Positions 8,744 through 57,305 of a DNA stretch of 64,000 bases are shown here, in pieces (the stretch's first letter is position 1; every line of letters starts with the position of its first letter). Source of the stretch: an uncultured Lachnospiraceae bacterium (lineage in GTDB: Bacteria; Bacillota; Clostridia; Lachnospirales; Lachnospiraceae); assembly GCA_964586425.1 (NCBI GenBank), contig CAZPHI010000004.1, positions 6,956 to 70,955 of the forward strand, read 5' to 3'. Below the pieces are notes generated by a model that was not told where the DNA came from, made no database searches, and worked only from the letters and a program-made list of their open reading frames with translations. A program made the position numbers and the translations under genes.

Positions 8744-10574
8744 ATCAATTGAGGAACTTGAAATCACAGATATTGAAGATGTTCTTATTCTGGTAGGACG
8801 TAATAATGCTGGAAAAAGTGTGGTTCTTGATGCAATAAGAGCTGTATCTGGTTATTATGTGATTAGTGGGAATGATTTTAACAATAGTGAAGGTAATATT
8901 GTTATCAGTATGAAGCTTGCAATAGATGATAATGACTTAAGATATATGTGTGATAAAGGAACAGTAAGTAATTTTAAGCATTATGATTTATGGATTAAGG
9001 ATTTTAAGACAAAGCTTCCGTCGTACAAAGATGGTGAACTTGTATTTGATTTTGTATACAGTCGTGATGGTGTTGTAAGATATAGAGACGGAGTGCATAA
9101 GAATAATAGTTATATTAAGGCGGTTGTACCAAAGATATATTTTGTGGATCATTACAGAGACAAATCATCCATTCAGGAAGATTTGATTATGCTGCAGGGC
9201 AAAGGGGATTATGCAAAGCTTAAGAATAATGACTGCATTTTTGAGAAGAATAAGCCATGTAATCAGTGTTTTAATTGTATTGGAATGATTAATAAAAAGA
9301 AACCTGAACAATTGTCACTTGTAGAAACTGCAAGACTTATGCAGTATAAGCTTTTTGATATTAATCTTGCGCAGTTTGAAGATAAACTGAATGAGAATTT
9401 TGAAAGAAATGGTGGAAAAGGTGAACAAATTCATTATGAAATTAACTTTGATGTTGAAGAATTAATGAAGATTAATACTGTTGTATATAATAAGACCAGG
9501 AATACGGAAGGAGAATTATCTTCGCTGTCTGAAGGTCTTAACAGCATCTACATATTATCATTGTTGGAAACATATGCAGATAATGGTAATACAGCGCCAT
9601 ATATTATCTTAATTGAGGATCCAGAGATATATCTGCATCCACAGCTACAGAAGGTAGCGAGTGAGATTTTGTACAGATTATCTAAGAAAAACCAGGTAAT
9701 TTTCTCAACTCATTCACCAACCATGCTTTTTAATTTCACGACAAAGCAGATAAGACAGGTCATTGTAAATAGGGACAATAACACAACAATCAATGAAGAG
9801 GCGGATATCGATGATATACTAGATGATTTGGGATATGCAGCTAATGATCTGATGAATGTAAGCTTTGTGTTCATTGTTGAAGGAAAGCAGGATAGAAGCC
9901 GACTTCCACTATTACTTGAGCGTTTTTACTCAGAGATATATGACAGCTCTGGCAAGCTTAATCGTATTGCAATAATTGCTACTAACAGCTGCACCAATAT
10001 TAAAACTTATGCTAATCTAAAATATATTAACACACTGTATCTAAAGGATCAGTTTTTGATGATTAGAGATGGTGATGGCAAGAACAGAAAGCGACTTACA
10101 GACCAGCTCACGAACTATTACAGCGAACGTGCTAAACAGGATGTAGGAAATCTTCCGCGTGTAACAGACCGGAATGTGCTTATTCTAAAGTATTATTCTT
10201 TTGAAAATTATTTTCTTGATCCAGAGGTAATGACTAAGATAGGTGTGGTTAAAAGTGTTGATGAGTTCTATGATATTCTCTATAGTAAGTATAAAGAGTA
10301 TCTGTATAAGCTTGTTAGTACCAAAAAGATGCTGGACAAACTGGGACTTGTGATTGACTCACGACAGAAGCTTATCGATAATATGGAGAATATTAGAATA
10401 TATGTCAGAGGACATAATTTGTATGATATCTTCTATGGAAGGTATAAGGGTGAGCGTGAAAATGCTATCTTGAGGGCATACATTGAGACTGCCCCTAAAA
10501 AAAATTTTGATGATATATTTGAGGCTATTGATAGGTTTGTGTATTTCCAAAGCCGTAGAAATAATTTGAAATAA
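8709..10574 (+). CDS. ABC-type ATPase fused to a Toprim-like domain (OLD-family / fused AriA-AriB PARIS-like nuclease candidate)
   Basis: Walker A GRNNAGKS (8796-8819). Signature-like LSEGLNS. Walker B/D-loop YIILIEDPEIYLHPQLQ. H-loop FSTHSP. C-terminal half has FIVEGKQD (Glu codon 9879-9881), IRDGDG (10065-10079) and YSFENYFLDPE. Confidence 0.75.
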   Translation: MKINYIKIKNYKSIEELEITDIEDVLILVGRNNAGKSVVLDAIRAVSGYYVISGNDFNNSEGNIVISMKLAIDDNDLRYMCDKGTVSNFKHYDLWIKDFKTKLPSYKDGELVFDFVYSRDGVVRYRDGVHKNNSYIKAVVPKIYFVDHYRDKSSIQEDLIMLQGKGDYAKLKNNDCIFEKNKPCNQCFNCIGMINKKKPEQLSLVETARLMQYKLFDINLAQFEDKLNENFERNGGKGEQIHYEINFDVEELMKINTVVYNKTRNTEGELSSLSEGLNSIYILSLLETYADNGNTAPYIILIEDPEIYLHPQLQKVASEILYRLSKKNQVIFSTHSPTMLFNFTTKQIRQVIVNRDNNTTINEEADIDDILDDLGYAANDLMNVSFVFIVEGKQDRSRLPLLLERFYSEIYDSSGKLNRIAIIATNSCTNIKTYANLKYINTLYLKDQFLMIRDGDGKNRKRLTDQLTNYYSERAKQDVGNLPRVTDRNVLILKYYSFENYFLDPEVMTKIGVVKSVDEFYDILYSKYKEYLYKLVSTKKMLDKLGLVIDSRQKLIDNMENIRIYVRGHNLYDIFYGRYKGERENAILRAYIETAPKKNFDDIFEAIDRFVYFQSRRNNLK

Positions 10575-34831: not shown

Positions 34832-34864
34832 TAGTAATATAATCTTAGAATATTGGAGAAAACT

Positions 34865-36394
34865 ATGGACATTAAAAGAGCAAAACAGGAAATTATAGAT
34901 ACGGTACAGGCATACTTAAGAAAGGATGCAAGAGGACAGTATGTAATACCGTCATATCGTCAGCGTCCGGTTATGCTGATGGGTGCACCTGGTATTGGTA
35001 AGACTGCAATTATGGAGCAGGTGGCAAGAGACTGCAATATTGGTCTAGTGTCATATACTATGACTCATCATACAAGACAAAGTGCGTTGGGATTGCCATA
35101 CATTGACAAGAAGACTTACCAGGGAAAAGAGTATTCGCAGACGTCATATACGATGAGTGAAATCATTGCTTCTGTTTATGAAAAGATAGAGGCGACGGGT
35201 TGTCCGAATGGCATCCTTTTTATTGATGAGATTAACTGTGTATCAGAGACACTGGCACCAGTTATGCTTCAGTTTTTACAGTGCAAGACTTTCGGTAATG
35301 CTAAAGTGCCGGAAGGCTGGGTAATTGTCGCAGCGGGTAACCCACCAGAATATAATAGAAGTGTAAGAGAATTCGATGTGGTAACGCTTGACCGTGTAAA
35401 GATGATTCATATAGAACCTGATTATAATGCGTGGAAACAATATGCATATGAGAATAATATACATGGTGCAATTATGGCGTATCTTGAAGCAAAGCAAGAG
35501 AATTTCTATTCAATAAAGAATACTGTTGATGGAAAGCAGTTCGTAACAGCAAGAGGATGGGAAGATTTGTCTAATATTATGTTGGTTTATGAGGAGATGA
35601 AGATTAGCATTGATGCTCAGTTGATAGAGCAATATGTGCAAGATCCTGCAATTGCAGTTGATTTTGCGAATTTCCTTGAATTATATTATAAGTATGAGAA
35701 GGCTTATAATATTGATGACATAATTAACGGAAATTATGCGGATGGACTTGTGAAAAAGATTAAAGAAGGTGCATTTGATGAGAAAATAAGTGTTGTTGGT
35801 ATGATTATCAGCAGGCTGAATAAGATATGCATGGAAGAGTATCTGTTTGATCAGATTACGACTAAGGTTTATGAGGTATTAAAGTATTACAATTCAAAGA
35901 TTATGCAGGATGTTGATCTTCATGCTCTTGACTGCTTAAAAGAGATTGCATCTGATAGAAGATTACGATACAATAAGTCAAAGGAAAATGGAATGCTTGG
36001 TGGAATTAAGGAGCTCACAGAATTCGATGTACTTTCATATATTGATAGTTATGTTGCAGTACTTTCACAGGCTATGCTGGAGAATGCGCAAGGCGAAGCT
36101 GTTACGGCTGCTGAAGCATTTGAAATAGTGAGAAATGAGTTTGTTAAGTTATCACAGCAGCGTGAAGATAAGATTGAGCAGGCATCAACTTCATTAAATA
36201 ATGCATTCGATTTTTGTGACAAAGCATTCGGACAAACGCCTCAGATGGTTTTGTTTGTAACTGAACTTGCAGCAGGATTCTATACACTTAAGTTTATTCA
36301 GGATAATGGATGTGAGCGTTATTACAGTTATAATCAGGATTTTAGCGGAGATGACAGAAGAAAGAAATTAATGGAACAGATTACAATAAATTAA
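34865..36394 (+). CDS. MoxR/AAA_5-type AAA+ ATPase with a ~250-aa C-terminal extension
   Basis: Walker A GAPGIGKT (34982-35005), Walker B LFIDEIN, AAGNPPEYNR...LDRV. Start set at the ATG at 34865 (GGAG 7 nt upstream); the longest ORF begins at the TTG at 34853. Confidence 0.85.
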   Translation: MDIKRAKQEIIDTVQAYLRKDARGQYVIPSYRQRPVMLMGAPGIGKTAIMEQVARDCNIGLVSYTMTHHTRQSALGLPYIDKKTYQGKEYSQTSYTMSEIIASVYEKIEATGCPNGILFIDEINCVSETLAPVMLQFLQCKTFGNAKVPEGWVIVAAGNPPEYNRSVREFDVVTLDRVKMIHIEPDYNAWKQYAYENNIHGAIMAYLEAKQENFYSIKNTVDGKQFVTARGWEDLSNIMLVYEEMKISIDAQLIEQYVQDPAIAVDFANFLELYYKYEKAYNIDDIINGNYADGLVKKIKEGAFDEKISVVGMIISRLNKICMEEYLFDQITTKVYEVLKYYNSKIMQDVDLHALDCLKEIASDRRLRYNKSKENGMLGGIKELTEFDVLSYIDSYVAVLSQAMLENAQGEAVTAAEAFEIVRNEFVKLSQQREDKIEQASTSLNNAFDFCDKAFGQTPQMVLFVTELAAGFYTLKFIQDNGCERYYSYNQDFSGDDRRKKLMEQITIN

Positions 36395-36422: not shown

Positions 36423-37307
36423 ATGGGCAATTACGATTCAATAAAACACCTTGGAAATCCGACAAATACATTGGAGATTATTAAAAAGTATGGGTTCGCA
36501 TTCCAAAAAAAATTCGGACAGAATTTTCTGATTGATGCTAATGTTGTTGAAAAAATTGTGCGTGAAGCAGGAGTGACAAAGGATGATTTTGTATTAGAGG
36601 TTGGTCCTGGAATTGGAACAATGACGCAGATTCTATGTGAGAATGCACGTGAGGTTGCAGCAGTTGAAATTGATACAAACCTGATACCTATTCTTTCTGA
36701 AACACTTGGTGGTTACGATAATATCACAGTTATTAATCAGGATATATTAAAGCTTGATATTGCAAAATTAGCTGATGAAAAGAATGATGGTAAACCAATT
36801 AAAGTTGTTGCAAATCTTCCTTACTATATAACAACACCAATCATTATGGGGCTTTTTGAAAGCCATGTGCCACTTGATAGTATTACAATAATGGTTCAGA
36901 AGGAAGTCGCAGACAGAATGCAGGTGGGTCCAGGAACAAAGGATTATGGAGCACTTTCGCTTGCGGTTCAGTATTATGCAAAACCAGAGATAGTGTTAAC
37001 TGTACCAGCAAGCTGCTTTATGCCTCGACCTAATGTCGATTCAGCAGTTATAAAGCTTACAAGATATACGGAGAATCCAGTTAGCGTCAAGGATGAAAAA
37101 CTAATGTTCAGATTAATTAGGGCATCTTTCAACCAGCGCCGTAAGACACTTGCCAATGGACTTAGTAACAGTGGCGAATTATCGTTGTCTAAAGAAACCA
37201 TTGCACATGCAATTGAGGCGGCAGGCTTTTCGGCAAGCATTCGTGGAGAAGCACTTACACTCGCTGAATTTGCGAAGCTCGCAGACATCATCACCGACAT
37301 GAAATAA
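36423..37307 (+). CDS. rsmA: 16S rRNA (adenine1518/1519-N6)-dimethyltransferase
   Basis: KKFGQNFLID, VLEVGPGIGTMT, NLPYYITTPI. Confidence 0.95.
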   Translation: MGNYDSIKHLGNPTNTLEIIKKYGFAFQKKFGQNFLIDANVVEKIVREAGVTKDDFVLEVGPGIGTMTQILCENAREVAAVEIDTNLIPILSETLGGYDNITVINQDILKLDIAKLADEKNDGKPIKVVANLPYYITTPIIMGLFESHVPLDSITIMVQKEVADRMQVGPGTKDYGALSLAVQYYAKPEIVLTVPASCFMPRPNVDSAVIKLTRYTENPVSVKDEKLMFRLIRASFNQRRKTLANGLSNSGELSLSKETIAHAIEAAGFSASIRGEALTLAEFAKLADIITDMK

Positions 37308-39533: not shown

Positions 39534-39800
39534 TTCCGTGCAGCCGGGGAGTTAGCGGCACCCTGTACCAGCAATCCGCTATAGCTGGGGTGATGCCGTG
39601 CTTAGGGTAGTGGCTTGTGGAGCTGCCCGATGTAAGTGGTGTTGACGTCTGGGTCTTTCGCAACAGAAATTCACGAATCATGTCAGGTCAGGAATGAAGC
39701 AGCATTAAGTGAAATCTTTTGTGTGCCGAAAGGTCGCCTGGGCCGAGCTAACTGCATCGGTAACGTCTGTGAGCTATTACACGAAGCACGACGCACGGAT
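39534..39800 (+). ncRNA. ffs: Signal recognition particle RNA, long Bacillus/Clostridium type (scRNA with Alu domain)
   Basis: Domain IV core GTCAGGTCAGGAATGAAGCAGCATTAAG at 39682-39709. Closing helix CCGTGC...GCACGG (39536 / 39798) followed by T7. GC-rich island in AT-rich DNA, at the classical position between tadA and dnaX. Confidence 0.85.
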
Positions 39801-40317: not shown

Positions 40318-40334
40318 TAGATTTGATAATATGG

Positions 40335-40376
40335 GAATGGATGGTCAATATGGCCATCTATTCTTGTTTTTGTTTA
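40335..40376 (+). terminator. Rho-independent terminator
   Basis: GAATGGATGGTCA / TGGCCATCTATTC stem (13 bp including 2 G-U pairs) followed by TTGTTTTTGTTT. Confidence 0.65.
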
Positions 40377-41574: not shown

Positions 41575-43146
41575 ATGGCATATACAGCATTATATAGAAA
41601 GTGGCGACCATCTGAATTTGAAGATGTCAAAGGTCAGGACCATATTGTTACAACATTGAAGAATCAGATAAAAGCTGATAGAATTGGACATGCATATTTA
41701 TTCTGTGGAACAAGAGGAACAGGTAAGACAACTATAGCAAAAATTCTTGCTAAAGCAGTTAACTGTGAGCATCCTGTTGATGGAAGTCCATGTGGTGAAT
41801 GTGAAAGCTGTAAGGCAATTGCAGCGGGAAGTTCAATGAATGTAATTGAAATAGATGCAGCATCAAATAATGGTGTTGATAATATTCGTGAGATAAGAGA
41901 TGAAGTACAGTATTCACCTACATCAGGCAAATATAAGGTTTATATTATTGATGAGGTTCATATGCTGTCTATAGGAGCATTTAACGCGCTCCTTAAGACA
42001 CTTGAAGAACCACCGGCATATGTAATATTTATATTAGCCACAACTGAAGCTCATAAGATACCGATAACTATTCTTTCGAGATGTCAGCGTTATGATTTCA
42101 AACGAATATCAATAGAAACTATTGCAGACCGTTTGAAAGAATTAATGATTGCAGAGAATATCAATGTAGAAGATAAAGCAATTCGATATGTAGCAAAAGC
42201 TGCAGATGGATCAATGCGAGACGCACTCAGCCTATTGGACCAGTGTATAGCATTTTACCTGGGAAAAGACCTAAAATACGACAATGTATTGGAGGTTTTA
42301 GGCGCAGTTGATGTGGAAGTATTCAGTAAAATGCTTCGAAGCGTCCTGGCTAGTGATACTGGCGCATGTATTCGCCAGTTGGAGGAGCTTGTAATGCAGG
42401 GACGTGATTTGAATCAGTTTGTTCTTGATTTTACATGGTATATGAGGAATCTTTTGCTCATACAATCATCAGATTCAGTTGAGGATGTTATTGATGTCTC
42501 AACAGATCAGATAAAGATTCTAAAAGAAGAATCCAAGATGATAGATGGCGACACATTGATGAGATATATTAGAATTTTCTCTGAACTTTCTAATAATATA
42601 AAGTTCTCAACACAGAAGAGAATTCTGGTTGAGATAGCACTGATAAAGCTTACAAAACCTGCCATGGAGCAGAATTATGATGATATACTAAGCAGACTCA
42701 CAATGCTTGAAAAAAGAATTGATGAAGGCATTGTAGTAACTAATGCATCTAATATGCAGATGGGCGCTAATACAGTTAGTGAAGCACCAAAGGAAGTTAG
42801 AAAAGCAGAACGTGCTGATATGGAACGAATCTGCGTCAATGCAAAAGGGATTATTGGGGCCAATGCTGAACTGACATGTAAGTTTTTATTTGCCCGAGAA
42901 GACAGTTTCAAGATGACTGTTGATAATGATAAGATTCTAATCTACACAAGTATAACACCTGGTGATAGAAAGAATATATATGAAGCTGAATTGAACAGAT
43001 TCTTTAAAGAAACAGAAGGAATAGATGTAGATTTTGAATTCAGCGAAAAAGAGATGGCTCAAACTGAGTCAGATGAAGGAATGCCAAGTGGCATTAATAT
43101 TGAACAATTTGATACTATAGAAAATGATGATCTTAAGGAGGTATAA
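41575..43146 (+). CDS. dnaX: DNA polymerase III subunit gamma/tau
   Basis: [22 protein letters not shown], Zn module [19 protein letters not shown]. Confidence 0.96.
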
Positions 43147-43151
43147 TTACA

Positions 43152-43502
43152 ATGGCAAAGCGTGGAGGATTCCCTGGTGGTATGCCAGGTAACATGAATA
43201 ATCTTATGAAACAGGCTCAGAGAATGCAGAAGCAGATGGAGGAGTCTACAAAAGAGTTAGAAACAAAGGAATTTACTGCTACAGCAGGTGGTGGAGCAGT
43301 TGAAGTAACTGTAACAGGTAAGAAAGAAGTTGCAAAGGTAAAATTATCACCAGAAGTTGTAGATCCTGATGATATTGAGATGCTTGAAGACTTAATAGTT
43401 GCTGCAACTAATGAAGCATTAAGAAAGATGGAAGATGAATCACAGTCACAGATGTCAAAGATTACTGGTGGTCTAGGAGGACTTGGTGGAGGTTTATTCT
43501 AA
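43152..43502 (+). CDS. ybaB: YbaB/EbfC-family nucleoid-associated protein
   Basis: [17 protein letters not shown]...[15 protein letters not shown].... Confidence 0.95.
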
Positions 43503-43563: not shown

Positions 43564-44160
43564 ATGGATCTTTACGGAAGTCAGATTAATAGATTAATAG
43601 AAGAACTTGGAAGATTACCAGGCGTTGGAGCTAAATCAGCACAACGTCTGGCATTTCACATTATTAATATGCCATCAGAGGATGTTAGTCGTCTTGCAGA
43701 TGCAATTGTGGATGCAAAATCAAAGGTTCGCTATTGCAAGGAATGCTATACTCTTACAGATGATGAGCTATGCCCGATTTGCAAGAATGCAAAGAGAAAT
43801 CATAGAGTGATTATGGTAGTTGAGACTCCAAGAGATATGGCGGCATATGAGAAAACACAGAAGTATGAAGGCGTATATCACGTACTTCATGGGGCGATAT
43901 CACCAATGCTAGGAATTGGGCCTAACGATATAAAGCTGAAAGAATTAATGCTTAGACTTCAGCAGGATGTCGATGAAGTGATTATCGCAACAAATTCAAG
44001 CCTCGAAGGGGAGACAACGGCGATGTATATTAGTAAACTTGTCAAACCAACAGGCATTAAGGTTACAAGAATAGCAAGTGGAGTTCCAGTCGGAGGCGAT
44101 TTGGAATATATTGATGAAGTTACACTTCTTCGTGCACTTGATGGTAGAACAGAACTTTAA
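43564..44160 (+). CDS. recR: Recombination protein RecR
   Basis: LIEELGRLPGVGAKSAQRLAFH, Zn finger C..C...C.IC, Toprim VVE...D.... Confidence 0.97.
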   Translation: MDLYGSQINRLIEELGRLPGVGAKSAQRLAFHIINMPSEDVSRLADAIVDAKSKVRYCKECYTLTDDELCPICKNAKRNHRVIMVVETPRDMAAYEKTQKYEGVYHVLHGAISPMLGIGPNDIKLKELMLRLQQDVDEVIIATNSSLEGETTAMYISKLVKPTGIKVTRIASGVPVGGDLEYIDEVTLLRALDGRTEL

Positions 44161-44185: not shown

Positions 44186-45718
44186 ATGGCTACAGAACAC
44201 ATTTTCCTGAATGATATTATATCCGATCACAGAGAAAGAATGCTGAATATAAAGAAGTATTATCCATTCTTTAAATTATGCGATATATCTTTCTCTCAGT
44301 TTAAGGACGGCAAATATCAGGTTTTAGATATGGGATATATTGTTATGGCCATTTTGCGCTTTTTTATTGAGGAGAATAATTTTAAAGAAAAAGACGTTAC
44401 GTATGTTGAGTTTGTAGCATTTGTATCACAATGTGTAAGACGTGATTTTGCGATGGAACTTACTGCGGATGAATATAAGGAAATTGCCGATTTTGTCTTT
44501 GACAAGATTAAGAATGATGGCAGGCCTTTTGATTTTGAATATTTTGATCCTGTTGATAGAAAGAAACGAATTTCAAGAATGAAGGTTATTGAGAGCAGGA
44601 TTATTGATAATACAGTTTGGTATTCGATTAGTGCGGATGCTATAGAGTTCTATTTAGATACCAAAGAGATTAAGGATGAAAGTCGTATTAGTGTACAGCA
44701 GCTTCTCTTGGAGAAGATGATAAATGCTCAGGATTTTGGTGGTGGAACTCAGGTTATTGCTAGAATAAACGAAGAAGTAAATCGTCTTTTGCAAAAGAAA
44801 AATGAAGTGCTGAATATCCTATCTGCAGATGTATATGCTGGAATGGATGCCTACGACGAATTTGTTGATACGGGTATGCGTTGGTTTGATGATGAGGAAA
44901 AACTATTTGTTAAGAATATGGAGTTGATTGAGGCTGCAAGAAAAAGAGCAGAGGAAAATCAATCTGTTGCACCAAGAACGCAGGCAATTACACAGATATA
45001 TGAACTTGAAAATCAACTAAAAATTGCTATTAATAAACATAGCGAATTGCTTAGAGCATGCACGGATATGCAAAAGATGACGGATGATATTGTACGCAGG
45101 GCGAAGTTAAGCAGATTCAGAAGTCATCTGGATTTTGCAGGTGCGCTTAAGGATATGATCGAAACAGATAATGCAGATTTCATGAGCATGATAATCGCAC
45201 CATTATTAAAACCTCATGCAACAAAAACATTTTACCTTAAAAATATTGATGAATGCCTCAATGTTAAGAGTGGAAGGTATGAAAAGGCGGAAAAGATAAG
45301 TCGTGAACCACAGAAGGATATTGTGTTTGATGATGAGATAGAAGAAGAGAGAATCGAACATAACTATTGCTTCTTTATGGGATGTATAGTTGAGATGTTG
45401 AAGAGTCAGAATACATTCACATTAAGAGATTTGAATGAGTATCTTAGCGAAAGATATTCGGAACGCATTCTTGCTAATGGTGATTATTATTCATTTATGA
45501 TTCATCTGTGTCAGAAGAAAGAGTATCATCTTGGTGAGGGCGGACGCTTTACAGAGAGCTTCTTAGATGCAATTCTTGCCAAAGAATATGCAAAGGGTGA
45601 GAGTATTGAGTTCTCAATTGAGCTTGCTCAGGGTCAGGAAGAGGATATGATTGAAATTGGCAATATATGCAGGATGACGAATATAACATTCACAAGAACT
45701 GATAATAAAGAGGAATAA
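44186..45718 (+). CDS. Unknown 510-aa protein; candidate MukF/MksF/JetA-like (kleisin-type) partner of the downstream SMC-like ATPase
   Basis: Starts 25 nt after recR with SD AAGGA. The only support for the functional call is size and position as the first gene of an F-E-B-like trio; no motif was recognised. Confidence 0.45.
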   Translation: MATEHIFLNDIISDHRERMLNIKKYYPFFKLCDISFSQFKDGKYQVLDMGYIVMAILRFFIEENNFKEKDVTYVEFVAFVSQCVRRDFAMELTADEYKEIADFVFDKIKNDGRPFDFEYFDPVDRKKRISRMKVIESRIIDNTVWYSISADAIEFYLDTKEIKDESRISVQQLLLEKMINAQDFGGGTQVIARINEEVNRLLQKKNEVLNILSADVYAGMDAYDEFVDTGMRWFDDEEKLFVKNMELIEAARKRAEENQSVAPRTQAITQIYELENQLKIAINKHSELLRACTDMQKMTDDIVRRAKLSRFRSHLDFAGALKDMIETDNADFMSMIIAPLLKPHATKTFYLKNIDECLNVKSGRYEKAEKISREPQKDIVFDDEIEEERIEHNYCFFMGCIVEMLKSQNTFTLRDLNEYLSERYSERILANGDYYSFMIHLCQKKEYHLGEGGRFTESFLDAILAKEYAKGESIEFSIELAQGQEEDMIEIGNICRMTNITFTRTDNKEE

Positions 45719-45731
45719 GGAGGAGCGAAAG

Positions 45732-46457
45732 ATGGAGACGAAGAATCTAGAGAAGGCAATGGAGATAGTAGCCAGTTTAATAGCATGTGAACCAATATCT
45801 GAAAAAGGCTCCAACAGCGCTTATTATCAGGACTACAGTTATAATTCAGAAGTGAATGAGATAGTACAAACAGCGCTTAAGAAGATGAATCTTGCGGTTT
45901 ATGAATACAACAATTCATTGTTTGTATGTGCCCTAGAGAATAATAAGGTCTTTGGTTATTCGAATGAGGAATTAAAGAAGGCTATTGGTGTAAGATTAAA
46001 TAAAGAATTGTACCTGTGTTATTTTATTATATACAACACAATTATGGAGTTTTACAGTGATTCAGCCAGCTATACATATGCTGAATTTACAAGGGTTGAG
46101 GACGTAATGAATAATGTTGATGCGTCTATTTCGGGTATTGTAGATAAGTCAGCAGGTGTAATTTTAGATGAGATAGAAGAAAACAGCTTTAAGCAGATTG
46201 CAATGTCATGGGATGAACTGCCGGCAATTAGTGATGATGAGAATTCAGGGGTTAGAGCAGCGCGTAATTCAAAGTCGGGTTATGTAAAGATGGTATTCAA
46301 CTTTCTAGTGCAGCAGGAATTATTTGTTGAATCACAGGCAAGGTTTTATCCGACAGATAGATTTAAAGCTTTGATTGAGAATTATTATGATGGATTTGGA
46401 GCAAGACTTGCACAGATATTAAACAGTAAGGAGGACGCTGATAATGCCACAGATTAA
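45732..46457 (+). CDS. Unknown acidic 241-aa protein; candidate MukE/MksE/JetB-like subunit
   Basis: Starts 13 nt after the previous stop with SD AAGGAGGAG. Its 3' end overlaps the SMC-like gene by 14 nt (translational coupling). Size matches MukE/JetB-class proteins. Confidence 0.45.
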   Translation: METKNLEKAMEIVASLIACEPISEKGSNSAYYQDYSYNSEVNEIVQTALKKMNLAVYEYNNSLFVCALENNKVFGYSNEELKKAIGVRLNKELYLCYFIIYNTIMEFYSDSASYTYAEFTRVEDVMNNVDASISGIVDKSAGVILDEIEENSFKQIAMSWDELPAISDDENSGVRAARNSKSGYVKMVFNFLVQQELFVESQARFYPTDRFKALIENYYDGFGARLAQILNSKEDADNATD

Positions 46458-49400
46458 CAGAATTCGAGTTAATAATGTTAAATACAACTTTGGAAACCAG
46501 ATGTATGATGATTTTGTTATGAGAATGTCTGGAAAGAATACGATATACGACCTGGCGAATGGTGGTGGTAAGAGTCTTCTTATGCTTCTGGTATTACAGA
46601 ATCTGATTCCGAATTGTACACTTGATGATAAACAGCCAATTGAAAAGCTTTTTCGTGGCAATACAGGGAATACAGCAATTCATTCTATGATAGAGTGGAA
46701 GCTCGATTCATGCTATGTAAAAGATGGATTTAAATATATGACAACAGGATTCTGTGCCAGAAAAGGCCGTGGTACTAATGATGATGAGGCAAGAGATGAC
46801 GCAGCAGATATTCAGGCATCAGATGCACAAAGCAATGTTAATGCGAGTGTAGAGTATTTTAATTACTGCATATTCTATCGCCAGTTTGGGGACAACGACC
46901 TTAAGAATCTTCCGTTATCAGATGGCAACGAGAGGATTACATATAATGGTTTAAAGACATATCTAAGAGATCTAGAGAAGAATGATTTTGGCGTAAAGGT
47001 TAAGATATTCGACAGAAAAGGTGATTATCAGAACTATATCAGCCAGTTTGGATTATTTGAGAGTCAATGGGAAATTGTAAGAGGAATTAATAAGACTGAA
47101 GGTCATGTAAGAACATACTTTGAGTCTAATTACAGAACCAGCCGCAAGGTAGTTGAAGATTTACTTATAGAGGAGATAATTCAGAAGTCATATAACAACA
47201 AATTAGGTGTTGAGAATGATGAAGGTGAGATGGCACAGACTCTTATCGACATCAAAGACAAGCTTTTAGAATTATCCAAAAAACACGGAGAGATGAGTAA
47301 TTTCGACAGCCAAGTTGAGGCTATAAGTGAATTCGCAGTTAAGGCTTCAGATTTTAAAAGCATTTATCAAAGAAAAGATGAACTTAAAAAGCATCTTCTA
47401 GCAATCTACCAGCAGTGTTATACGGCGTCTTCAAAGCTGGATACCTATAGTAATGTTCTTAACGACCGCAGCGAAGCGTATATCCAGAAGATTAATTATG
47501 AACAGCAGCAGATTCTTATTGCGAAGGTTATGGAAGAGGAACGTTCACTTAAGATGATTAAGGCGCAGGTTGGTGAAACACAGGCCAAGAAACAACAGTT
47601 TGTAGAGTCTAATAAAAAGCTTTATGAAGAGTTAAAATTAAAAGAAGCGGCTAATGATTACAGTGATTACGAGGAATATAGCAAAAAGAGTCAGGAAATA
47701 AAGGCTTACATTGATAACCGACTTAAAAGTAAGGATGATATTCTTAATGAGCTTAGGGAGCTGGCAGAACAAAAATATCAATTTGATAAAGTCGAACAGG
47801 ATGTTATCAATATAAAATTAAGTGATTTGGAAGAAAAACTTAATATATTAAAATCAGAGGAACAGGAATTATCAAATCAGGAAAGAGAAAATGACCGTAA
47901 GGTATACTCTATTGGAGATGCAATTGATAAGTTAAAATCAGATATTGAGAATAAGGAATCACAGCTTGCGCAGATGCAGAGCAGTGGTCTTGTTCTGGTG
48001 GCTGATGATGCAGGTGAGAAGCTTGCAGAAACAAAGGCAAAGCTTGATGATGTAAAGAATAATATAGAATCAATAAAAGAGAGCTGTAGTAAGAGTGATT
48101 CACAGGTTATTGAATATAATAAAATTGTTAATAGATTAGAAGCATTGATTAGTGTGATTGATGGGGATATTGAAGGACTGAGTCAGACAGAAGAGAAGCA
48201 GAATGCTATAAAAGAAAAAATAGATTCCATGTCTAAGATATATGATGAATATAATCCTGCTAAGCTTCTGGATATAATTGCTAATGGCTATAAGAGCAGC
48301 CTGCTGGATGTTAATCAGCTTGGAAGTGAATTAGAAGCATTAACAGCTTATGTTGAAAGATTGAAGCGTGGTGAGTATCAGTGTGATGGAAAGCAGTATA
48401 ATCAGATAGATGATTATCTTAGAAATCATTATGGACAGGATGTAATGACGGGTAATGAGTTTATGGCAACATTGAATGTCAATCAGAGAAGAGATGTTGC
48501 AAAACGTATGCCTGGAATAGAGTATGGATTTGTAATAAAAGGTGATTTTGATAGGATTAAAGCGGATACACGCCTTTCTAATATTCAGGGAAGTTCATAT
48601 ATTGTACCTGTAATTAGTGAGAATATAGTGTATGACACGAAACTTGAAATTAATTCAGATATGGTTGTGCTTGCCACAAAGAATCAGGATTTTCTGCATG
48701 ATGATGCCAGACTGGAAGCTGAATTACGTTCATCAACAGAAGAACTTGAGAATCTGTCTAGCAGATATAACAAACTTAAGGATAGAAATAATCTGTTGTG
48801 GGAGGATTACACATATGTCCTTTCGTATTGCAATATGATTGAGGGAGATGGAACTGATTCGTCACTAATTCAGCTTGAAAAACAAAAAAGCCAGAAGAGT
48901 GCTGCTCAGACAGAGTATGCAAAAGCCAAGGACAGGCTTGCGCAGGCAGAGAAGAATAGTGAGAAGCTTAAGGCTGACCTTTGGAAAGAGCAGGAAATAA
49001 AGGATGAATTATTGGCTGATTGTACTCAATTAGAGAAAATAATTGAATTGAAATCAGATATTGATAATGCTTATGTTACATTAAAACAGAGTCAGGAATC
49101 AAAGAAGCTTGCGGCTAATGAATTAGAAAGTGCAAGAGTAAAGCTTGATGAGTTGAAAATCAACATAAATAGTTTGAGATTAGAGATAGAAAACTTTAAT
49201 TCTAAAAAAGATGTAATAAATAATGAATGGCAGCAAGTGTATAGCAGATACTATGAAGGTAAAGTGACAGATGGTATGTCTACAAATTCATCTATAAATA
49301 AAACAATGGATAATGATGAGGTTAGTAGAACATATGTAGAGAGCCGCTTTATGGGTTTGAAAGATATTATTGAAAAGGAAGTATCAGATGTAAGTGATAA

Positions 49401-50985
49401 GGAAACCCTGCTTGATAATTACAAACGTTCAATGGATAAGGCTGTGAAAGCATTAGAATATAAGGGTTACACACTTGAGACTATTGAAGCACTGTATTCT
49501 TCTCATGAGATATATGCATGTAAGCCGGAAGTACTTATAGCTATAAAGGATAAGATAAAAAGTTTTGAGCATAAACTCGATGAGATAGAGAATGAGTTTG
49601 AAGCGCAAAGTGCATTGATGAATAGAATTGAAGGTAGTGTAGAACACGGTATTCGACAGATTGAAGAAAGATATGGGGACTATAAAGCATTTGCCTGTGA
49701 CAACGAGACTGAATATGTAAGAGAACATAGTGGTCTTGTTGAACAGTTGAAGAAGGAATCAAAAGACATTGCTGCGCATATGAAGAAATGTGATAGAAGT
49801 GCCCAGGAGGTTGTGATTATGCTCAAAGATCTGGAGCGAATAATCACAAATGCTGGAATTGATAATATTATAAGTACAGGAGAAGCAGGTAATAATTCAC
49901 AGTTGGATTCGAATGATATAGATAGATTCGATCTTGACGAGATTATGGGGCAGCTTAAGAATCTTCGATATGAAGAAGTACTTAAGGAATTTGACAAACT
50001 TGTAAAGCAGGAGAATAAGCGTAAGGATGAGTTCCTTAAGTTCAGAGCAACGCTTGCGGATAAGCTGACAGCACTCAATGGAGGACAGCTTGCAACTGAG
50101 ATTTTACGAAGTGTGGTCGCTCCGGATAATGTGGAGGAAACAAATAACTTAATTAAATCACTTAATGAAACTAATGATTTGATTATTCTTGAAAGAGATA
50201 GAATCGCTAAGAATATTGAGAATATGGAGAAGATTAAGGACAGCTTTGAAAATCGATGCATTCAGACATGCAGCAACATAAAAAGTGAGCTGGACAGATT
50301 GCCAAAATTGTCAACGATCACTATGGATGAGCAGGTGATTTCGATAATTGGACTGCACATACCATATGTAAAGGAAGAGTTCTTCAAGGAAAGAATGTCA
50401 TCATATATTAATGAGACGGTGACTGGGGCAGAGAGCTTCAAAAACCCAGAAGAGAGACTTAGATTTATTCGTAACAGGCTGGCTTGGAAGCGTCTCTTTG
50501 GTGTAATAGTAACAGATATGAATGCGGTTAAGATAAATCTTTATAAAAGGGAAAGAATTATTGACCAATCGCGTTATCTTCCATATGAGGAAGCTGTTGG
50601 TAGTACTGGTCAGTCTCAGGGTATATATATTCAGTTCCTTATAGCAATTATCAATTATATATCAAGTATTAATGCTGATATAGTTGAAACATCTGGAATT
50701 GGAAAGACAATATTCATTGATAACCCATTTGGCGCAGCTAAAGATATATATATATGGGAACCAATATTCAAATTGTTAAAAACAAATCATGTACAGCTGA
50801 TTGTTCCAGCGCGTGGTGCAACACCAGCAATTACTGGAAGATTTGATGTGAATTACATTCTTGGACAGAAGATGGTTGATGGAAGACAACAGACAGTTGT
50901 GGTCGATTATCATAGTCAGATTAAGAATGAAGAAATGGAATATACAAGGCTAGATTTCGAACAGGCAAAACTTGATTTATTTTGA
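46444..50985 (+). CDS. Giant SMC-like ABC ATPase (MukB/MksB/JetC-like): N-terminal head, ~1100-aa coiled coil, C-terminal head
   Basis: P-loop ANGGGKS (46555-46575) followed by LQNLIPNCTLD. Long E/K/L/Q-rich heptad-like middle. C-terminal STGQSQG and TIFIDNPFGAAKD...VQLIVPARG (from 50707). Confidence 0.7.
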   Translation: MPQINRIRVNNVKYNFGNQMYDDFVMRMSGKNTIYDLANGGGKSLLMLLVLQNLIPNCTLDDKQPIEKLFRGNTGNTAIHSMIEWKLDSCYVKDGFKYMTTGFCARKGRGTNDDEARDDAADIQASDAQSNVNASVEYFNYCIFYRQFGDNDLKNLPLSDGNERITYNGLKTYLRDLEKNDFGVKVKIFDRKGDYQNYISQFGLFESQWEIVRGINKTEGHVRTYFESNYRTSRKVVEDLLIEEIIQKSYNNKLGVENDEGEMAQTLIDIKDKLLELSKKHGEMSNFDSQVEAISEFAVKASDFKSIYQRKDELKKHLLAIYQQCYTASSKLDTYSNVLNDRSEAYIQKINYEQQQILIAKVMEEERSLKMIKAQVGETQAKKQQFVESNKKLYEELKLKEAANDYSDYEEYSKKSQEIKAYIDNRLKSKDDILNELRELAEQKYQFDKVEQDVINIKLSDLEEKLNILKSEEQELSNQERENDRKVYSIGDAIDKLKSDIENKESQLAQMQSSGLVLVADDAGEKLAETKAKLDDVKNNIESIKESCSKSDSQVIEYNKIVNRLEALISVIDGDIEGLSQTEEKQNAIKEKIDSMSKIYDEYNPAKLLDIIANGYKSSLLDVNQLGSELEALTAYVERLKRGEYQCDGKQYNQIDDYLRNHYGQDVMTGNEFMATLNVNQRRDVAKRMPGIEYGFVIKGDFDRIKADTRLSNIQGSSYIVPVISENIVYDTKLEINSDMVVLATKNQDFLHDDARLEAELRSSTEELENLSSRYNKLKDRNNLLWEDYTYVLSYCNMIEGDGTDSSLIQLEKQKSQKSAAQTEYAKAKDRLAQAEKNSEKLKADLWKEQEIKDELLADCTQLEKIIELKSDIDNAYVTLKQSQESKKLAANELESARVKLDELKININSLRLEIENFNSKKDVINNEWQQVYSRYYEGKVTDGMSTNSSINKTMDNDEVSRTYVESRFMGLKDIIEKEVSDVSDKETLLDNYKRSMDKAVKALEYKGYTLETIEALYSSHEIYACKPEVLIAIKDKIKSFEHKLDEIENEFEAQSALMNRIEGSVEHGIRQIEERYGDYKAFACDNETEYVREHSGLVEQLKKESKDIAAHMKKCDRSAQEVVIMLKDLERIITNAGIDNIISTGEAGNNSQLDSNDIDRFDLDEIMGQLKNLRYEEVLKEFDKLVKQENKRKDEFLKFRATLADKLTALNGGQLATEILRSVVAPDNVEETNNLIKSLNETNDLIILERDRIAKNIENMEKIKDSFENRCIQTCSNIKSELDRLPKLSTITMDEQVISIIGLHIPYVKEEFFKERMSSYINETVTGAESFKNPEERLRFIRNRLAWKRLFGVIVTDMNAVKINLYKRERIIDQSRYLPYEEAVGSTGQSQGIYIQFLIAIINYISSINADIVETSGIGKTIFIDNPFGAAKDIYIWEPIFKLLKTNHVQLIVPARGATPAITGRFDVNYILGQKMVDGRQQTVVVDYHSQIKNEEMEYTRLDFEQAKLDLF

Positions 50986-51061
50986 CAATTATAGGTCTCT
51001 GTGATAGACTTGAGACATATATGACAAAATGGCAGTTACTATATGCAAAGGTGGCGTTAAA

Positions 51062-54019
51062 GTGGATAAGTATGAATTTAATATTAAACTTGATCAGATA
51101 AAGAAACTGTGTGAAAAGAAGGATTTTAAAACAGCTTCGAAGATTGCTAAGGGAATGGAATGGAAGAAAGTTAAAGACTGGTCTGTACTTTCTATGGTCA
51201 TTGCAGCACATGAGAATGCTGGTGATTATGAAGAAGCAAGAGAAGTTGCAGTTATTGCATATAATAAGAATATGGGCGGAAGACGTCTTGTATACAAATT
51301 AGCAGAGATATGTGTAAAACTTAATGATTTTAATGATGCTAATGAGTTATATAAGGATTATTCTAAGATGGCACCTAGGGATGTCAACAAATATATTCTT
51401 TTATATAAGTTGAGAAAGGCTGAGGGAGCTCCATCAACAAAACTTATTAGAATACTAGAGGAATATAAAGAGCATGAAATAGATGAGATGTATCTGTATG
51501 AGCTTGCTATGCTTTATAGCCAGGTTGGAAGAACAGAGGATTGTCTTGATGAATGTGAAGAGATAATTCTTTGGTTCAGAGATGGTATCTATGTTGAGAA
51601 TGCTATTAAGCTTAAGCAGAAGTATGTAGCAATTACTCCTTCACAGCAGAAGATTCTTGATGATGCTAAGAAAAAATACGAAGAAAGTATGTCTCTTGAG
51701 AAAACAAAGGAAATCAAATTCGAAAAAGCACAGATAGAAGCAAAACAGCATGACGAAATTGATGCTGTTTTCCGTGAGGCTGGAGATACATCACTTTCTG
51801 ATACAGCAGATATTCCAGTTAAGATTACAGCTGAGATGGTAGCTGAAACACTTAGAGGCAATGGAGCTCGAAGAGCTGTAAAGAATGATACAGATATTAT
51901 GGATACAATGGAGTCCGAGGAAGAAGACGAAGAAGATTACGATGAAGATCTTGATAGCTATGAGGATGAGACATCAACATTCATGGGTGCGTCAGGTGTG
52001 TTAAAATCTATATTTCATAAAGTATTCCATTCAGCAGATGAAGATAATGAAGATGATGGAATATATGATAACGTGGAAACTGAGAATGATACCTTGGATA
52101 TAAAAGAGGAAGATACAGATTATTCTGATGAAACAGACGATGCTGATTATTTGGATGATGTGGCAAATTCGGATTCAAATGAAGATGATGAAGAGACGAC
52201 TCCAAGTATTGATTCAGATGATGAAAAGGTGGTTTCAGATATTGATTCAACTGATACAGATACAGCTGATTTAGATTCAGATACAGATTCAGAGGCAGAT
52301 ACAGAAGTCAATGAAGATGCTGTTGATATTGCCGCAATAGAAAAGAATGAAGTTGATGCAGATGAGATTAATATTCAGATAAAAGATTATGGTCCATATG
52401 ACACACAGAATATTCAGGAAGCACTTGCTAAGGCCGTAGGAATAGTTATGGATAATGAGTCAAAGGCTAATCAGGCAGAAACTCTTGATGATAAAACAGA
52501 TGATGAATCAGAGGAAAAACCTGTAGAGGATGAAGTGTTCAAGGTTGATGCTTCAGATGAGGAACCTCAAGAAGAGCAGATTGAAGGTCAGATGAATATT
52601 CTTGACTGGATGGAAGCTGTTCAGGAGCAAAAGTATGGCGGAAGAGAAACTAAAGAATTCTCAAAGGCAGAACTTGAGAAGCTTCTTACTCAAAGAGAGA
52701 ACGAGAAAGAGGCATATAATAAGCTGATGGCTGAGAAGAAAGCACTTGCATTATCGAATGGTGTTCCTTTTGATGAGAGTAAGGCTCATTTGGAAGCTAC
52801 TGCGCAGGTTAATGTAATGGAAGCCAGATCTGATTTGATGTTTAGAGCAGGTAAAGCATTTGCCAAGTTAGAAGAAGAGGCAGCAGCTGTTAGACAAACT
52901 GCAATTAATGAAAGAGAAGCAGAAAAGAATATGACAGTGGTTGAGCAAGCTGTAATAAGTGATGCGGAGCAAGAAGTATTTTCTCCAGAACTATCTGAGG
53001 CAGTCAATGCTGCGAGAGAAGCTGCATATGAGGCTGCAAAGGTAGCAATCGAAGCTGCGACAACAGCTGTAGGTAAATCATCTGAGACAATAGAAGATAC
53101 AAGCCATAATGAAGAAATTAATATATTTGATGATGAATCAATTAATACTGATGATATAGAAGATAGTGATCAGGTTGAGATTGAGGAAGAAGAGCAGGAT
53201 TTATTCGAAGATGAAGATAGTGATGAAGCAGAGGAGGATAATAGCGAGAATGCTTCAATTCCTTCTAGCATCAGACGATTCTTTAAAAAATACGAAGAGA
53301 TGGATAAACTTTACGAGCAAATCGCAGAGTTTTATGTAACTTGTGATAAAGAAGTCAGAAGTAATGATTCAAAGCGTGGTAATCTTATTATTTCGGGTAA
53401 TAAGAGTGCGGATAAAACAAGCTTGGCTGCTAATATTGTAAAAGGTCTTAATACATTATATCCGGATATGCCAAAGCGTGTAGCAAAAACTACTGGTGAG
53501 AGTATTAATCACAAAGGTATTCTTAAAGCACTTCCAAAACTTAAGGGTACAGCATTTATTATAGAAGATGCAGGAATTATTGAGCCTAAGAAAGTTGCAG
53601 AAATAGTTGAGATATGTAATCAGGAAACAGATGGTATGATTATTATTCTTGAAGGTTCGGATACAGATATAGATGTATTGTTAAGCGTTAATCCAGAGCT
53701 TGTTGATAGATTTAATCATAGAATCGTGATAAAGCAGTATACAGTCAATGAATTAGTGGAGATGGCTAAGAGATACGCTGTTAAGAGACAGTATGCGATT
53801 GATGATAGTGCATTGCTTGCATTGTATCTTAAGATTGACAGACTTCATTCACAGAATGATTGTGTAAGCCTTGAACAGATTAAAGAAATAATTGATAGAA
53901 CTATTGTTAAGGCAGAACGAAGAGTATCCAAGAAGATATTCGGAGGTTTCAAGAAGAAACGTAGTGAGAATGGTGATATGCGACTTCTTATGGAAATTGA
54001 TTTTAAAGAAAAAGAATAA
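51062..54019 (+). CDS. TPR-like N-domain, long poly-acidic disordered region, and a C-terminal CbbX/SpoVK-type AAA+ module with degenerate Walker motifs
   Basis: GTG at 51062 is preceded by AAAGGTGG; the ATG at 51029 is an alternative start without an SD. C-terminal module has GNKSADKT (vs GxxGxGKT), FIIEDAG (vs hhhhDE), and NPELVDRFNHRIVIKQYTVNEL (cf. NPGL.SRF...I.F.DY...EL). Confidence 0.7.
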   Translation: MDKYEFNIKLDQIKKLCEKKDFKTASKIAKGMEWKKVKDWSVLSMVIAAHENAGDYEEAREVAVIAYNKNMGGRRLVYKLAEICVKLNDFNDANELYKDYSKMAPRDVNKYILLYKLRKAEGAPSTKLIRILEEYKEHEIDEMYLYELAMLYSQVGRTEDCLDECEEIILWFRDGIYVENAIKLKQKYVAITPSQQKILDDAKKKYEESMSLEKTKEIKFEKAQIEAKQHDEIDAVFREAGDTSLSDTADIPVKITAEMVAETLRGNGARRAVKNDTDIMDTMESEEEDEEDYDEDLDSYEDETSTFMGASGVLKSIFHKVFHSADEDNEDDGIYDNVETENDTLDIKEEDTDYSDETDDADYLDDVANSDSNEDDEETTPSIDSDDEKVVSDIDSTDTDTADLDSDTDSEADTEVNEDAVDIAAIEKNEVDADEINIQIKDYGPYDTQNIQEALAKAVGIVMDNESKANQAETLDDKTDDESEEKPVEDEVFKVDASDEEPQEEQIEGQMNILDWMEAVQEQKYGGRETKEFSKAELEKLLTQRENEKEAYNKLMAEKKALALSNGVPFDESKAHLEATAQVNVMEARSDLMFRAGKAFAKLEEEAAAVRQTAINEREAEKNMTVVEQAVISDAEQEVFSPELSEAVNAAREAAYEAAKVAIEAATTAVGKSSETIEDTSHNEEINIFDDESINTDDIEDSDQVEIEEEEQDLFEDEDSDEAEEDNSENASIPSSIRRFFKKYEEMDKLYEQIAEFYVTCDKEVRSNDSKRGNLIISGNKSADKTSLAANIVKGLNTLYPDMPKRVAKTTGESINHKGILKALPKLKGTAFIIEDAGIIEPKKVAEIVEICNQETDGMIIILEGSDTDIDVLLSVNPELVDRFNHRIVIKQYTVNELVEMAKRYAVKRQYAIDDSALLALYLKIDRLHSQNDCVSLEQIKEIIDRTIVKAERRVSKKIFGGFKKKRSENGDMRLLMEIDFKEKE

Positions 54020-56066: not shown

Positions 56067-57305
56067 TTAATGATCAATATCTTTTTTGTAAAAGGTGCCA
56101 CGTACAATGGCACCTTTTCCGTATTTATTACGGATGTTATCTAAGGCTTTATCGAGACTGGCTTGTTTTTGAATGTTATTTTGAGGTAAGCTGCTTTGGA
56201 CGCTGGTATTAGTGATATCCATATCAAAAAGACTAAGTTGAACAGGCTCAGTTTCGGTAGTTAATTTGGTTGTTCTAACACCTATAAGACGTACTGGAGA
56301 GCCATTCCACAATTCCTGATAGAGGGAAAGAGAGTGCTGGTATATTGATTCGGTACTGTCGGAGGCTTGTGGTAAGGTTATCTGTCTGGAACAACTGGTG
56401 AAATCACTGTACTTAATCTCTACAGTTATTGTATGCGCGCGAAAGTTGTTCTTACGTAAGCGAGAGGCAACACTTTCCGATAATTTGAGAAGCACCGGTT
56501 TGGCATCATCTATATTAAGTACATCGGACTCTAAAGTTGTAGAATTACCAACACCTTTGGCTTGTGAATCAATGGGTTCAACAGGAGAATTATCAATTCC
56601 GTTAGCATATTCCCAAAGCATACGGCCATGGCTTTTTAAATGTGGTGTAAGAAGTGCAGGATCAGTTAATGCAAGTTGTCCAATTGTATGGATTCCAAGC
56701 TTTTTAAGTGTAGCAACACTTGATTTGCCACACATAAGTAAATCTTCAATTGGTAAAGGCCACATCTTTTCCTGAATCTCAGATTCGAATAGAGTATGGC
56801 ACAAATCAGGTTTTTTGAAATCAGAAGCCATCTTTGCAAGTATTTTAACATTGCTGATACCTATGTTAACTGTAAATCCAAAAGTGTCACGTACCTTATT
56901 GCGAATTATATTAGCTGCATCAACAGGACTGGCATACTTGGATACATAATTAGTAAAATCCATAAAACATTCATCAATACTAACCTGTTCAATAATGGGA
57001 GAGAAAGTACGCAATAATTCCATAAGTTCATGACTGTTCTTTCTATATAGATTAATGTCAGGAGAATAAACTGAAAGATTGGCGCACTTAAGCAAAGCAT
57101 TATGTACAGGTTCTCCAGTCTGTATATTGAATGCCTTAGCGGGTACTGATTTAGCAAGTACAATTCCGTGTCGTGTCTTCTGATTACCACCTATAATTGC
57201 GGGGATTGTACGAATATCTGTGCTGGTTGCATCCTTGGAAAGCAAATCAACAGCAGTCCAGCTTAAGAAAGCTGAATTTACATCAATATGAAATATAATG
57301 CGCAT
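56067..57305 (-). CDS. dinB: DNA polymerase IV (Y-family)
   Basis: MRIIFHIDVNSAFLS, SIDECFMD, a little-finger region. SD GAAAGGA. Confidence 0.95.
   Translation of the reverse strand: MRIIFHIDVNSAFLSWTAVDLLSKDATSTDIRTIPAIIGGNQKTRHGIVLAKSVPAKAFNIQTGEPVHNALLKCANLSVYSPDINLYRKNSHELMELLRTFSPIIEQVSIDECFMDFTNYVSKYASPVDAANIIRNKVRDTFGFTVNIGISNVKILAKMASDFKKPDLCHTLFESEIQEKMWPLPIEDLLMCGKSSVATLKKLGIHTIGQLALTDPALLTPHLKSHGRMLWEYANGIDNSPVEPIDSQAKGVGNSTTLESDVLNIDDAKPVLLKLSESVASRLRKNNFRAHTITVEIKYSDFTSCSRQITLPQASDSTESIYQHSLSLYQELWNGSPVRLIGVRTTKLTTETEPVQLSLFDMDITNTSVQSSLPQNNIQKQASLDKALDNIRNKYGKGAIVRGTFYKKDIDH
56090..56118 (+). terminator. Stem-loop terminator for tkt, embedded in the 3' coding end of convergent dinB
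   Basis: AAAAGGTGCCA, 7-nt loop, TGGCACCTTTT: a perfect 11-bp stem ending in T4. Confidence 0.5.

Follow-up and report, generated by a model that had tools for sequence, protein, structure and literature searches.

A 64,000-nucleotide (nt) stretch of contig CAZPHI010000004.1 from an uncultured Lachnospiraceae bacterium, referred to here as the window, carries three genes directly behind dnaX, ybaB, and recR whose products we identify from their sequences as JetA3, JetB3, and JetC3: the kleisin, KITE subunit, and structural maintenance of chromosomes (SMC)-type ATPase of a Wadjet type III system. JetD, the Toprim nuclease of Wadjet, was not found in the window, and the trio can be described as a vertically inherited core gene set of a Lachnospiraceae clade, fast evolving under strong constraint. 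On balance, the three proteins probably form a domesticated, nuclease-free Wadjet type III SMC complex that acts on the chromosome. The families to which they belong are catalogued (PADLOC JetA3, JetB3, and JetC3; Pfam DUF6063) yet uncharacterized.

Identity of the three proteins

The first gene, jetA3 (positions 44186 to 45718, + strand), encodes 510 amino acids (aa) and matched the PADLOC model PDLC00560 over residues 1 to 506 (E = 1.1e-220). The product of jetB3 (45732 to 46457, + strand; 241 aa) matched PDLC00571 (E = 1.4e-102) and was the only member of the trio recognized by Pfam, as DUF6063 (PF19539; E = 1.7e-47). That of jetC3 (46444 to 50985, + strand; 1513 aa) matched PDLC00581 over its full length (E = 0, 1798 bits), with a weak NCBIfam match to the SMC model TIGR02168 along its coiled coil. 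The JetA3 family is small (1.84 billion representatives yielded 309 clusters of it at 50% identity), and JetA3 gave no match in Pfam, NCBIfam, or the PDB sequences. Searches of the PDB sequences with all three proteins, both as single sequences and as family profiles, returned nothing meaningful, which places type III far from the solved structures of type I and II Wadjet and of MukBEF.

AlphaFold2 models were built on homolog alignments and then searched with Foldseek. The JetA3 model (predicted local distance difference test score [pLDDT], 77.8) has the layout of a kleisin, an N-terminal winged-helix region and a long helical bundle, followed by a disordered linker at approximately residues 347 to 381 and a C-terminal winged-helix domain. 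Its best match was 7nz2_C1 (4e-4), followed by 9gm9_D, 3rpu_X, and 9gm7_D, chains whose lengths lead us to regard them as MukF; E. coli JetA (8as8_E, 2e-2) ranked below them. Template modeling scores for JetA3 were low (0.2 to 0.36), because several domains are joined flexibly. The JetB3 model (pLDDT, 74.1) consists of two winged-helix modules in the tandem arrangement of KITE proteins, and its top eight matches were all KITE proteins (JetB, Nse1/Nse3, MukE; probability, 0.85 to 1.0). Matches included E. coli JetB (8as8_C, 1.6e-3), Nse1/Nse3 chains (5hvq_C and 7dg2_A), and MukE (3euh, 3rpu, and 7nyw_F), with ScpB lower in the list. Profile comparison with hhalign matched FIDN...VQLIV of JetC3 to FLDE...MQLII of MukB (E = 0.0017, low probability, consistent with the motifs); JetA3 against MukF was marginal (E = 0.01), and the JetB3 profile found nothing in E. 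coli MukE (E = 0.4). Together, the predicted structures and the alignment of JetC3 to MukB support the kleisin-KITE-SMC reading independently of the PADLOC labels.

Of the split ABC head expected of an SMC protein, JetC3 has the P-loop, the signature motif, and the Walker B Asp, but not the catalytic Glu. An N-terminal head with the P-loop is followed by approximately 1100 aa of coiled coil, fitting in composition and with a predicted central hinge region, and by a C-terminal head that carries the signature motif and Walker B. The P-loop (NGGGKS), the signature (GSTGQSQG), and Walker B (IFIDNPF) are at least 95% conserved in the recR-linked clade described below. In the window, Walker B (TIFIDNPFG) lies at approximately 50670 to 50710; the corresponding position was compared in four other type III loci (L086, L088, L089, and L090). 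Its Asp is conserved. The next residue, a catalytic Glu in MukB, Smc, and further ABC ATPases, is Asn here and Ser or Ala in other JetC proteins of type III, and every type III JetC examined, JetD positive or JetD-less, reads hhhhD-[N/S/A]-P-[F/W]. We considered the missing Glu as a mark of inactivation in JetD-less loci and rejected it, since JetD-positive type III JetC proteins also lack the residue; its loss is a family trait, uncorrelated with the loss of JetD, and poses a separate puzzle for the mechanism of SMC ATPases.

All three genes lie on the + strand behind dnaX (41575 to 43146), ybaB (43152 to 43502), and recR (43564 to 44160, + strand). The gap between recR and jetA3 is 25 nt and that between jetA3 and jetB3 is 13 nt; jetB3 and jetC3 overlap by 14 nt, and AAGGA or AGGAGG precedes each of the three starts. 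A simple scan of the + strand found only the terminators at 40331 to 40367, before pfk, and at 56090 to 56118, after tkt, and none from dnaX to tkt. With 25 nt between recR and jetA3 and no terminator, the trio is likely to be cotranscribed with dnaX-ybaB-recR in this organism. An earlier note on this DNA had read the three open reading frames (ORFs) as a MukFEB- or JetABC-like SMC module, an assignment that the PADLOC models, the Foldseek matches (MukF and JetA for JetA3; JetB, Nse, MukE, and ScpB for JetB3), and the alignment to the MukB Walker B all bear out, including the kleisin and KITE relationships of the first two proteins. The sizes, junctions, good Shine-Dalgarno sequences, and terminator-free run to the tkt hairpin that it listed were found as described, as were its motifs ANGGGKS, LQNLIPNCTLD, STGQSQG, TIFIDNPFGAAKD, and VQLIVPARG.

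JetD, synteny, and inheritance

Wadjet type III is reportedly defined in the 2018 work of Doron and in PADLOC and DefenseFinder; the system of Bacillus thuringiensis YBT-020 is an example. On the Clostridium perfringens plasmid pJFP838A the order is jetD3-jetA3-jetB3 (DUF6063)-jetC3, and jetD overlaps the start of jetA. The canonical order jetD-jetA-jetB-jetC was seen in L090, L094, and L089; among metagenomic loci of this order, L094/L095 encode a protein with the Pfam domain JetD_C and L089 encodes a truncated JetD3. At L094/L095 (71-1866), a 235-aa protein with faint matches to MazE/PrlF-like antitoxins is encoded ahead of jetD, with which its gene overlaps; some type III operons may thereby have an additional component.

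In the window, recR occupies the jetD slot directly upstream of jetA. PADLOC identified no JetD among the 20 other ORFs of the window, and tblastn with the C. perfringens JetD3 gave no match there at E <= 10. Within approximately 10 kb on either side of the trio, the same query found nothing in any of the 80 related loci; L086 to L088 gave nothing either, yet the 31%-identical JetD3 of L089 was recovered at 7e-20. RecR itself (198 aa) did not match the PADLOC JetD models; its HhH, Zn-finger, Toprim, and C-terminal domains are those of a standard RecR, the RecR Pfam domains are present in related loci, and its identity across the clade is approximately 80%. The earlier note's observation that the trio lacks a JetD-like nuclease therefore held for the window, and so did its attachment to dnaX-ybaB-recR, which proved to extend well beyond this organism.

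When one genome per species was scanned, 417 species proved to have a relative, and the best 80 loci were inspected. This set was retrieved from the close JetA3 group, the full 33-sequence JetA3 alignment being too divergent for pattern-based retrieval, so that it overrepresents the recR-linked clade and leaves 337 of the 417 species uninspected. The genes dnaX-ybaB-recR lie directly upstream of jetA-jetB-jetC in 78 of the 80 loci. The two exceptions are L007, where the upstream region is rearranged and the trio is kept without recR, and L039, where too little upstream sequence is available. All 80 are of Lachnospiraceae type (Lachnospira, the Eubacterium eligens group, [Clostridium] fimetarium, Falcatimonas, and metagenome-assembled genomes labeled "Butyrivibrio"), and jetA, jetB, and jetC are intact and single-frame in every locus where the contig permits the assessment. 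The closest named relative at the trio locus is C. fimetarium (JetA, 63% identity; RecR, 84%).

RecR, YbaB, and DnaX have median identities to the window of 81%, 83%, and 71%, respectively; the values for JetA, JetB, and JetC are 54%, 56%, and 44%. Identity to the window proved a poor test of codivergence and was replaced by a Mantel test on all pairwise distances among 67 loci. Distances of the Jet proteins, which reach p-distances of 0.64 in the clade, correlated with those of the housekeeping neighbors (r = 0.89, p = 0.001) about as tightly as recR correlated with dnaX (r = 0.82). Ratios of nonsynonymous to synonymous substitution rates (dN/dS), estimated in ten species pairs, were 0.03 to 0.08 for jetA, 0.01 to 0.08 for jetB, and 0.06 to 0.17 for jetC (0.06 to 0.12 once the most divergent of the pairs that gave a usable estimate is set aside); those of the neighbors were 0.00 to 0.11, and 0.00 to 0.06 in nine of the ten pairs. 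In three pairs (L028/L022, L029/L024, and L064/L056), the three jet genes, and in part recR, had diverged at synonymous sites 2 to 3 times as much as dnaX and ybaB, for example, 1.6 to 1.7 for jet genes against 0.2 to 0.5 for dnaX/ybaB in the same pair; recombination importing divergent alleles, or a codon-usage constraint on the neighbors, could account for the excess.

The surroundings of the trio are ordinary housekeeping territory. Upstream of the dnaX-ybaB-recR block lie the signal recognition particle RNA (39536 to 39798), tadA, GNAT genes, and pfk; GC content is flat across the region (0.35 to 0.37), and GC skew is positive throughout. The recR-linked clade had no match in phage genomes or IMG/VR contigs, and the only plasmid match was the distant JetD-positive locus of C. 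perfringens. A mobile defense island was accordingly rejected on the basis of uniform GC, fixed position, codivergence, and absence from the phage and viral collections and, for this clade, from plasmids. Synteny, the Mantel test, dN/dS, and the absence from phage and viral sequences together identify a core gene set, neither a mobile island nor a decaying remnant.

The spacing between recR and jetA is less uniform than the gene order. Its median is 38 nt, with more than 120 nt in 16 loci, and a clear intrinsic terminator stands right after recR in L073 (approximately 9760 to 10000) and L069; in L073, promoter-like hexamers follow before jetA. Judged from these sequences, cotranscription of recR with the trio is not universal, and position is the conserved feature.

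A profile search with distant JetA3 representatives returned at least eight proteins. Distant JetA3 relatives, at approximately 22 to 24% identity to the window clade, belong to a second JetD-less trio on metagenomic contigs (L086 to L088 and L096), in the context alaS-rpsU-yqeY-jetA3B3C3. In a neighbor-joining tree of concatenated JetA, JetB, and JetC (2151 columns, 200 bootstraps), this yqeY-linked clade grouped with the JetD-positive L089 in 200 of 200 replicates and next with the JetD-positive L094 in 190 of 200; it grouped with the recR-linked clade in none. Because the yqeY-linked clade falls with JetD-positive loci and never with the recR-linked clade, JetD appears to have been lost at least twice in type III, both times in lineages with a housekeeping context, as judged from a small sampling and a simple tree.

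Proposed function of the JetD-less trio

We propose that JetA3 as the kleisin, a JetB3 KITE dimer, and a dimer of the JetC3 SMC ATPase would form a complete holocomplex, which lost the JetD Toprim nuclease, became fixed after dnaX-ybaB-recR, and has since been inherited vertically in a Lachnospiraceae clade. By analogy to other JetABC- and MukBEF-type complexes, it would load onto DNA and either entrap it or translocate along it in an ATP-dependent manner; without the nuclease, its output would be organization of DNA and not cleavage, in the form of chromosome folding, segregation, or support of repair. MksBEF of Pseudomonas aeruginosa, thought to derive from JetABCD through loss of JetD, provides a parallel. 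Core-genome position, vertical inheritance, and purifying selection, as seen in the 78 of 80 syntenic loci, the Mantel test, and dN/dS, are what would be expected of a condensin; vertical inheritance and purifying selection favor a chromosomal SMC function over classical defense, without proving it. The first of the two hypotheses in the earlier note, a second, origin-proximal condensin, is favored to this extent; "origin-proximal" describes the location of the genes, not a site of action. The lineage is Wadjet type III specifically, and the note's second hypothesis, a Wadjet-like defense system, is disfavored in its classical form by inheritance and selection.

Several points weigh against a domesticated chromosomal complex. 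JetD or another effector could sit elsewhere in the genome, beyond the window and the approximately 10-kb flanks. The Jet proteins evolve faster than their neighbors (44 to 56% against 71 to 83% median identity), which is typical of defense genes too. Without the Walker B Glu, type III may run through a different ATPase cycle than the known loop extruders do. The linkage to recR is perhaps historical and not functional, since a terminator separates recR from jetA in some species. To our knowledge, functional data on type III are confined to the original transformation assay. The type was still "largely uncharacterized" as of 2025 (10.1101/2025.03.10.642339).

More tentatively, we suggest that Clostridia may have domesticated type III as a nuclease-free core SMC complex on at least two independent occasions, in the recR-linked and in the yqeY-linked lineage. 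It would be a second chromosomal machine beside Smc-ScpAB that is possibly coupled to replication or RecFOR repair and, in the recR-linked lineage, possibly has a TPR-AAA+ partner. The candidate partner is a 996-aa protein encoded directly downstream of jetC3 (51029 to 54019, + strand). It has an N-terminal tetratricopeptide repeat (TPR) region, with Pfam TPR matches below threshold, a long middle part that is acidic and of low complexity, and an AAA+ domain at the C terminus with NCBIfam matches to SpoVK, EccA, and CbbX. Both the P-loop (GNxSxDKT) and the Walker B (LIIEDAG) of this protein are degenerate in part; ahead of its gene, at 50982 to 51010, lies a promoter-like sequence, TTGACA-17-TAGACT. 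The gene directly follows jetC in 64 of the 66 recR-linked loci with enough sequence. Neither C. fimetarium (L006) nor L075 has it, and it is missing from every yqeY-linked and every JetD-positive locus. The protein may be an accessory factor or a mere syntenic neighbor.

The strongest alternative, which we regard as rather unlikely, is that the trio still provides immunity against plasmids or other episomes without a dedicated JetD, either by nuclease-free entrapment, compaction, or silencing or through an effector encoded in trans, such as an unlinked JetD, the TPR-AAA+ protein, or another nuclease. All characterized Wadjet systems restrict plasmids, JetABC in these systems senses the shape and size of DNA, and human Smc5/6 restricts extrachromosomal DNA, episomal viral DNA in that case, without cleaving it; the faster evolution of the Jet proteins would fit as well. 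Defense systems, however, are usually patchy and island-borne, unlike a trio fixed at one housekeeping position, which codiverges with its neighbors, has no compositional anomaly, and was never found on phage or viral contigs. An effector in trans meets difficulties of its own. JetD and JetABC of different Wadjet types are not interchangeable, and activation of JetD has been suggested to proceed via specific protein-protein contacts; jetD adjoins jetA in every canonical type III locus seen, so that a trans partner would be atypical. The near-constant position of the TPR-AAA+ gene after jetC would suit an effector, but its product lacks a nuclease domain, its ATPase motifs are partly degenerate, and neither C. 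fimetarium nor the second JetD-less clade encodes it.

That RecR has replaced JetD as the partner of JetABC3, which would tie the SMC complex to recombinational repair of the RecFOR type where gaps form or forks stall, is improbable. The idea draws on the Toprim domain that RecR shares with JetD and on the position of recR, which is that of jetD in the canonical D-A-B-C order and directly upstream of jetA in nearly all loci, with a gap no larger than 60 nt in 47 of the 78. The protein, however, is an ordinary, well-conserved RecR with no similarity to the JetD models, and we know of no nuclease activity of RecR. In the second JetD-less clade the upstream neighbor is yqeY or small ORFs and not recR, the trio of L007 persists without recR upstream, and terminators intervene between recR and jetA in some species. 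A decaying, nonfunctional remnant of a type III system that has lost JetD, the component needed for plasmid restriction in canonical Wadjet, is barely credible and was rejected, given ORFs intact in every complete locus across approximately 80 species at p-distances up to 0.64, dN/dS of 0.01 to 0.12 outside the most divergent usable pair, and ATPase motifs at least 95% conserved.

What appears to be new about the trio, in line with the earlier note, is its recR-linked, JetD-less form only, its families being catalogued already. Literature searches found no description of a JetD-less type III trio in the dnaX-ybaB-recR neighborhood of Lachnospiraceae, none of repeated JetD loss within type III, no relevant match for Wadjet together with recR, and, in the library searched, no paper on DUF6063. 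JetD-less Mks trios are known in general, and both MukBEF and MksBEF have been proposed as nuclease-less descendants of Wadjet-like defense systems. That proposal of a transition from defense to condensin has so far drawn on a small number of type I-lineage cases from proteobacteria and actinobacteria; the least-studied Wadjet type shows the same transition in abundant Firmicutes of the human and animal gut, apparently twice. A double domestication, if true, would be a natural repeat of the route proposed for MksBEF and MukBEF, and the existence of close JetD-positive relatives makes the change from SMC immune sensor to chromosome organizer directly testable. The locus points, too, to what may be a second SMC complex of the Lachnospiraceae, of a kind that defense-system finders miss or report merely as an incomplete Wadjet.

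Other genes of the window and comparison with known systems

Elsewhere in the window, approximately 35 kb from the trio, an OLD-family ATPase-nuclease of 621 aa (8709 to 10574, + strand; Pfam AAA_15, AAA_21, and DUF2813) matched the PADLOC models Old (3.8e-39), AriA (6e-28), and GajA (1.5e-25). Two ORFs lie upstream of it (7414 to 8139 and 8111 to 8743), of which the 241-aa one has a weak PDC-S07 match, and the region may be a small defense locus. A methyltransferase-like protein of 294 aa (36423 to 37307, + strand) matched PADLOC mad2 (1e-25), and just upstream of its gene lies one for a 513-aa ATPase (AAA/AAA_5; 34853 to 36394). A gene for a 941-aa DUF6240 protein (28 to 2853, + strand) followed by a flagellin gene (2983 to 4380, + strand) suggests that the organism is an apparently flagellated member of the Lachnospiraceae.

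Compared with Wadjet type III, the trio belongs to the JetA3, JetB3, and JetC3 families and shares the A-B-C order, the tight or overlapping spacing, a DUF6063 JetB, and the Walker B pattern D-[N/S/A]-P-[F/W]; it lacks a JetD3 gene in the same operon upstream of jetA. Canonical type III loci are plasmid- or island-borne, whereas the trio has recR in the jetD slot and is chromosomal, fixed, and vertically inherited. In the concatenated alignment, the recR-linked clade is approximately 16 to 24% identical to the JetD-positive type III proteins.

MksBEF of P. aeruginosa, a relative of type I without MksG/JetD, is likewise a kleisin-KITE-SMC trio without a Toprim nuclease. It has a part in organizing the chromosome, and we propose it as the functional analogue of the JetD-less type III trio. 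The two differ in descent: MksBEF belongs to a type I-like lineage (DUF3375/DUF4194/DUF3584) in a different phylum, whereas the trio is of type III with DUF6063. Similarity between them is undetectable at the level of sequence, JetA3 having no PDB or Pfam match and JetB3 matching DUF6063 alone. MksBEF has been described as scattered through horizontal transfer, unlike the trio, which is fixed vertically in its clade.

With MukBEF the trio shares the F-E-B (kleisin-KITE-SMC) gene order, similar protein sizes, and MukF and MukE among its structural matches. The 1513-aa length of JetC3 fits the mostly long coiled coils reported for Wadjet-III, which, like MukBEF, is long-armed and has no hinge channel (PMC12647877). 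Significant sequence similarity is lacking, and Walker B reads D-E in MukB and D-N in JetC3. MukBEF is a core chromosomal condensin, possibly from a Wadjet-like ancestor, that replaced Smc-ScpAB in its lineage; Firmicutes usually keep Smc-ScpAB. Smc5/6, finally, is also a KITE-based SMC complex, and JetB3 has Nse1/Nse3 near the top of its structural matches. Its roles are to maintain the genome and to restrict episomal DNA, for which Smc5/6 has no dedicated nuclease. Being eukaryotic and heteromeric, with a much larger set of subunits, it resembles the trio at the level of fold only.

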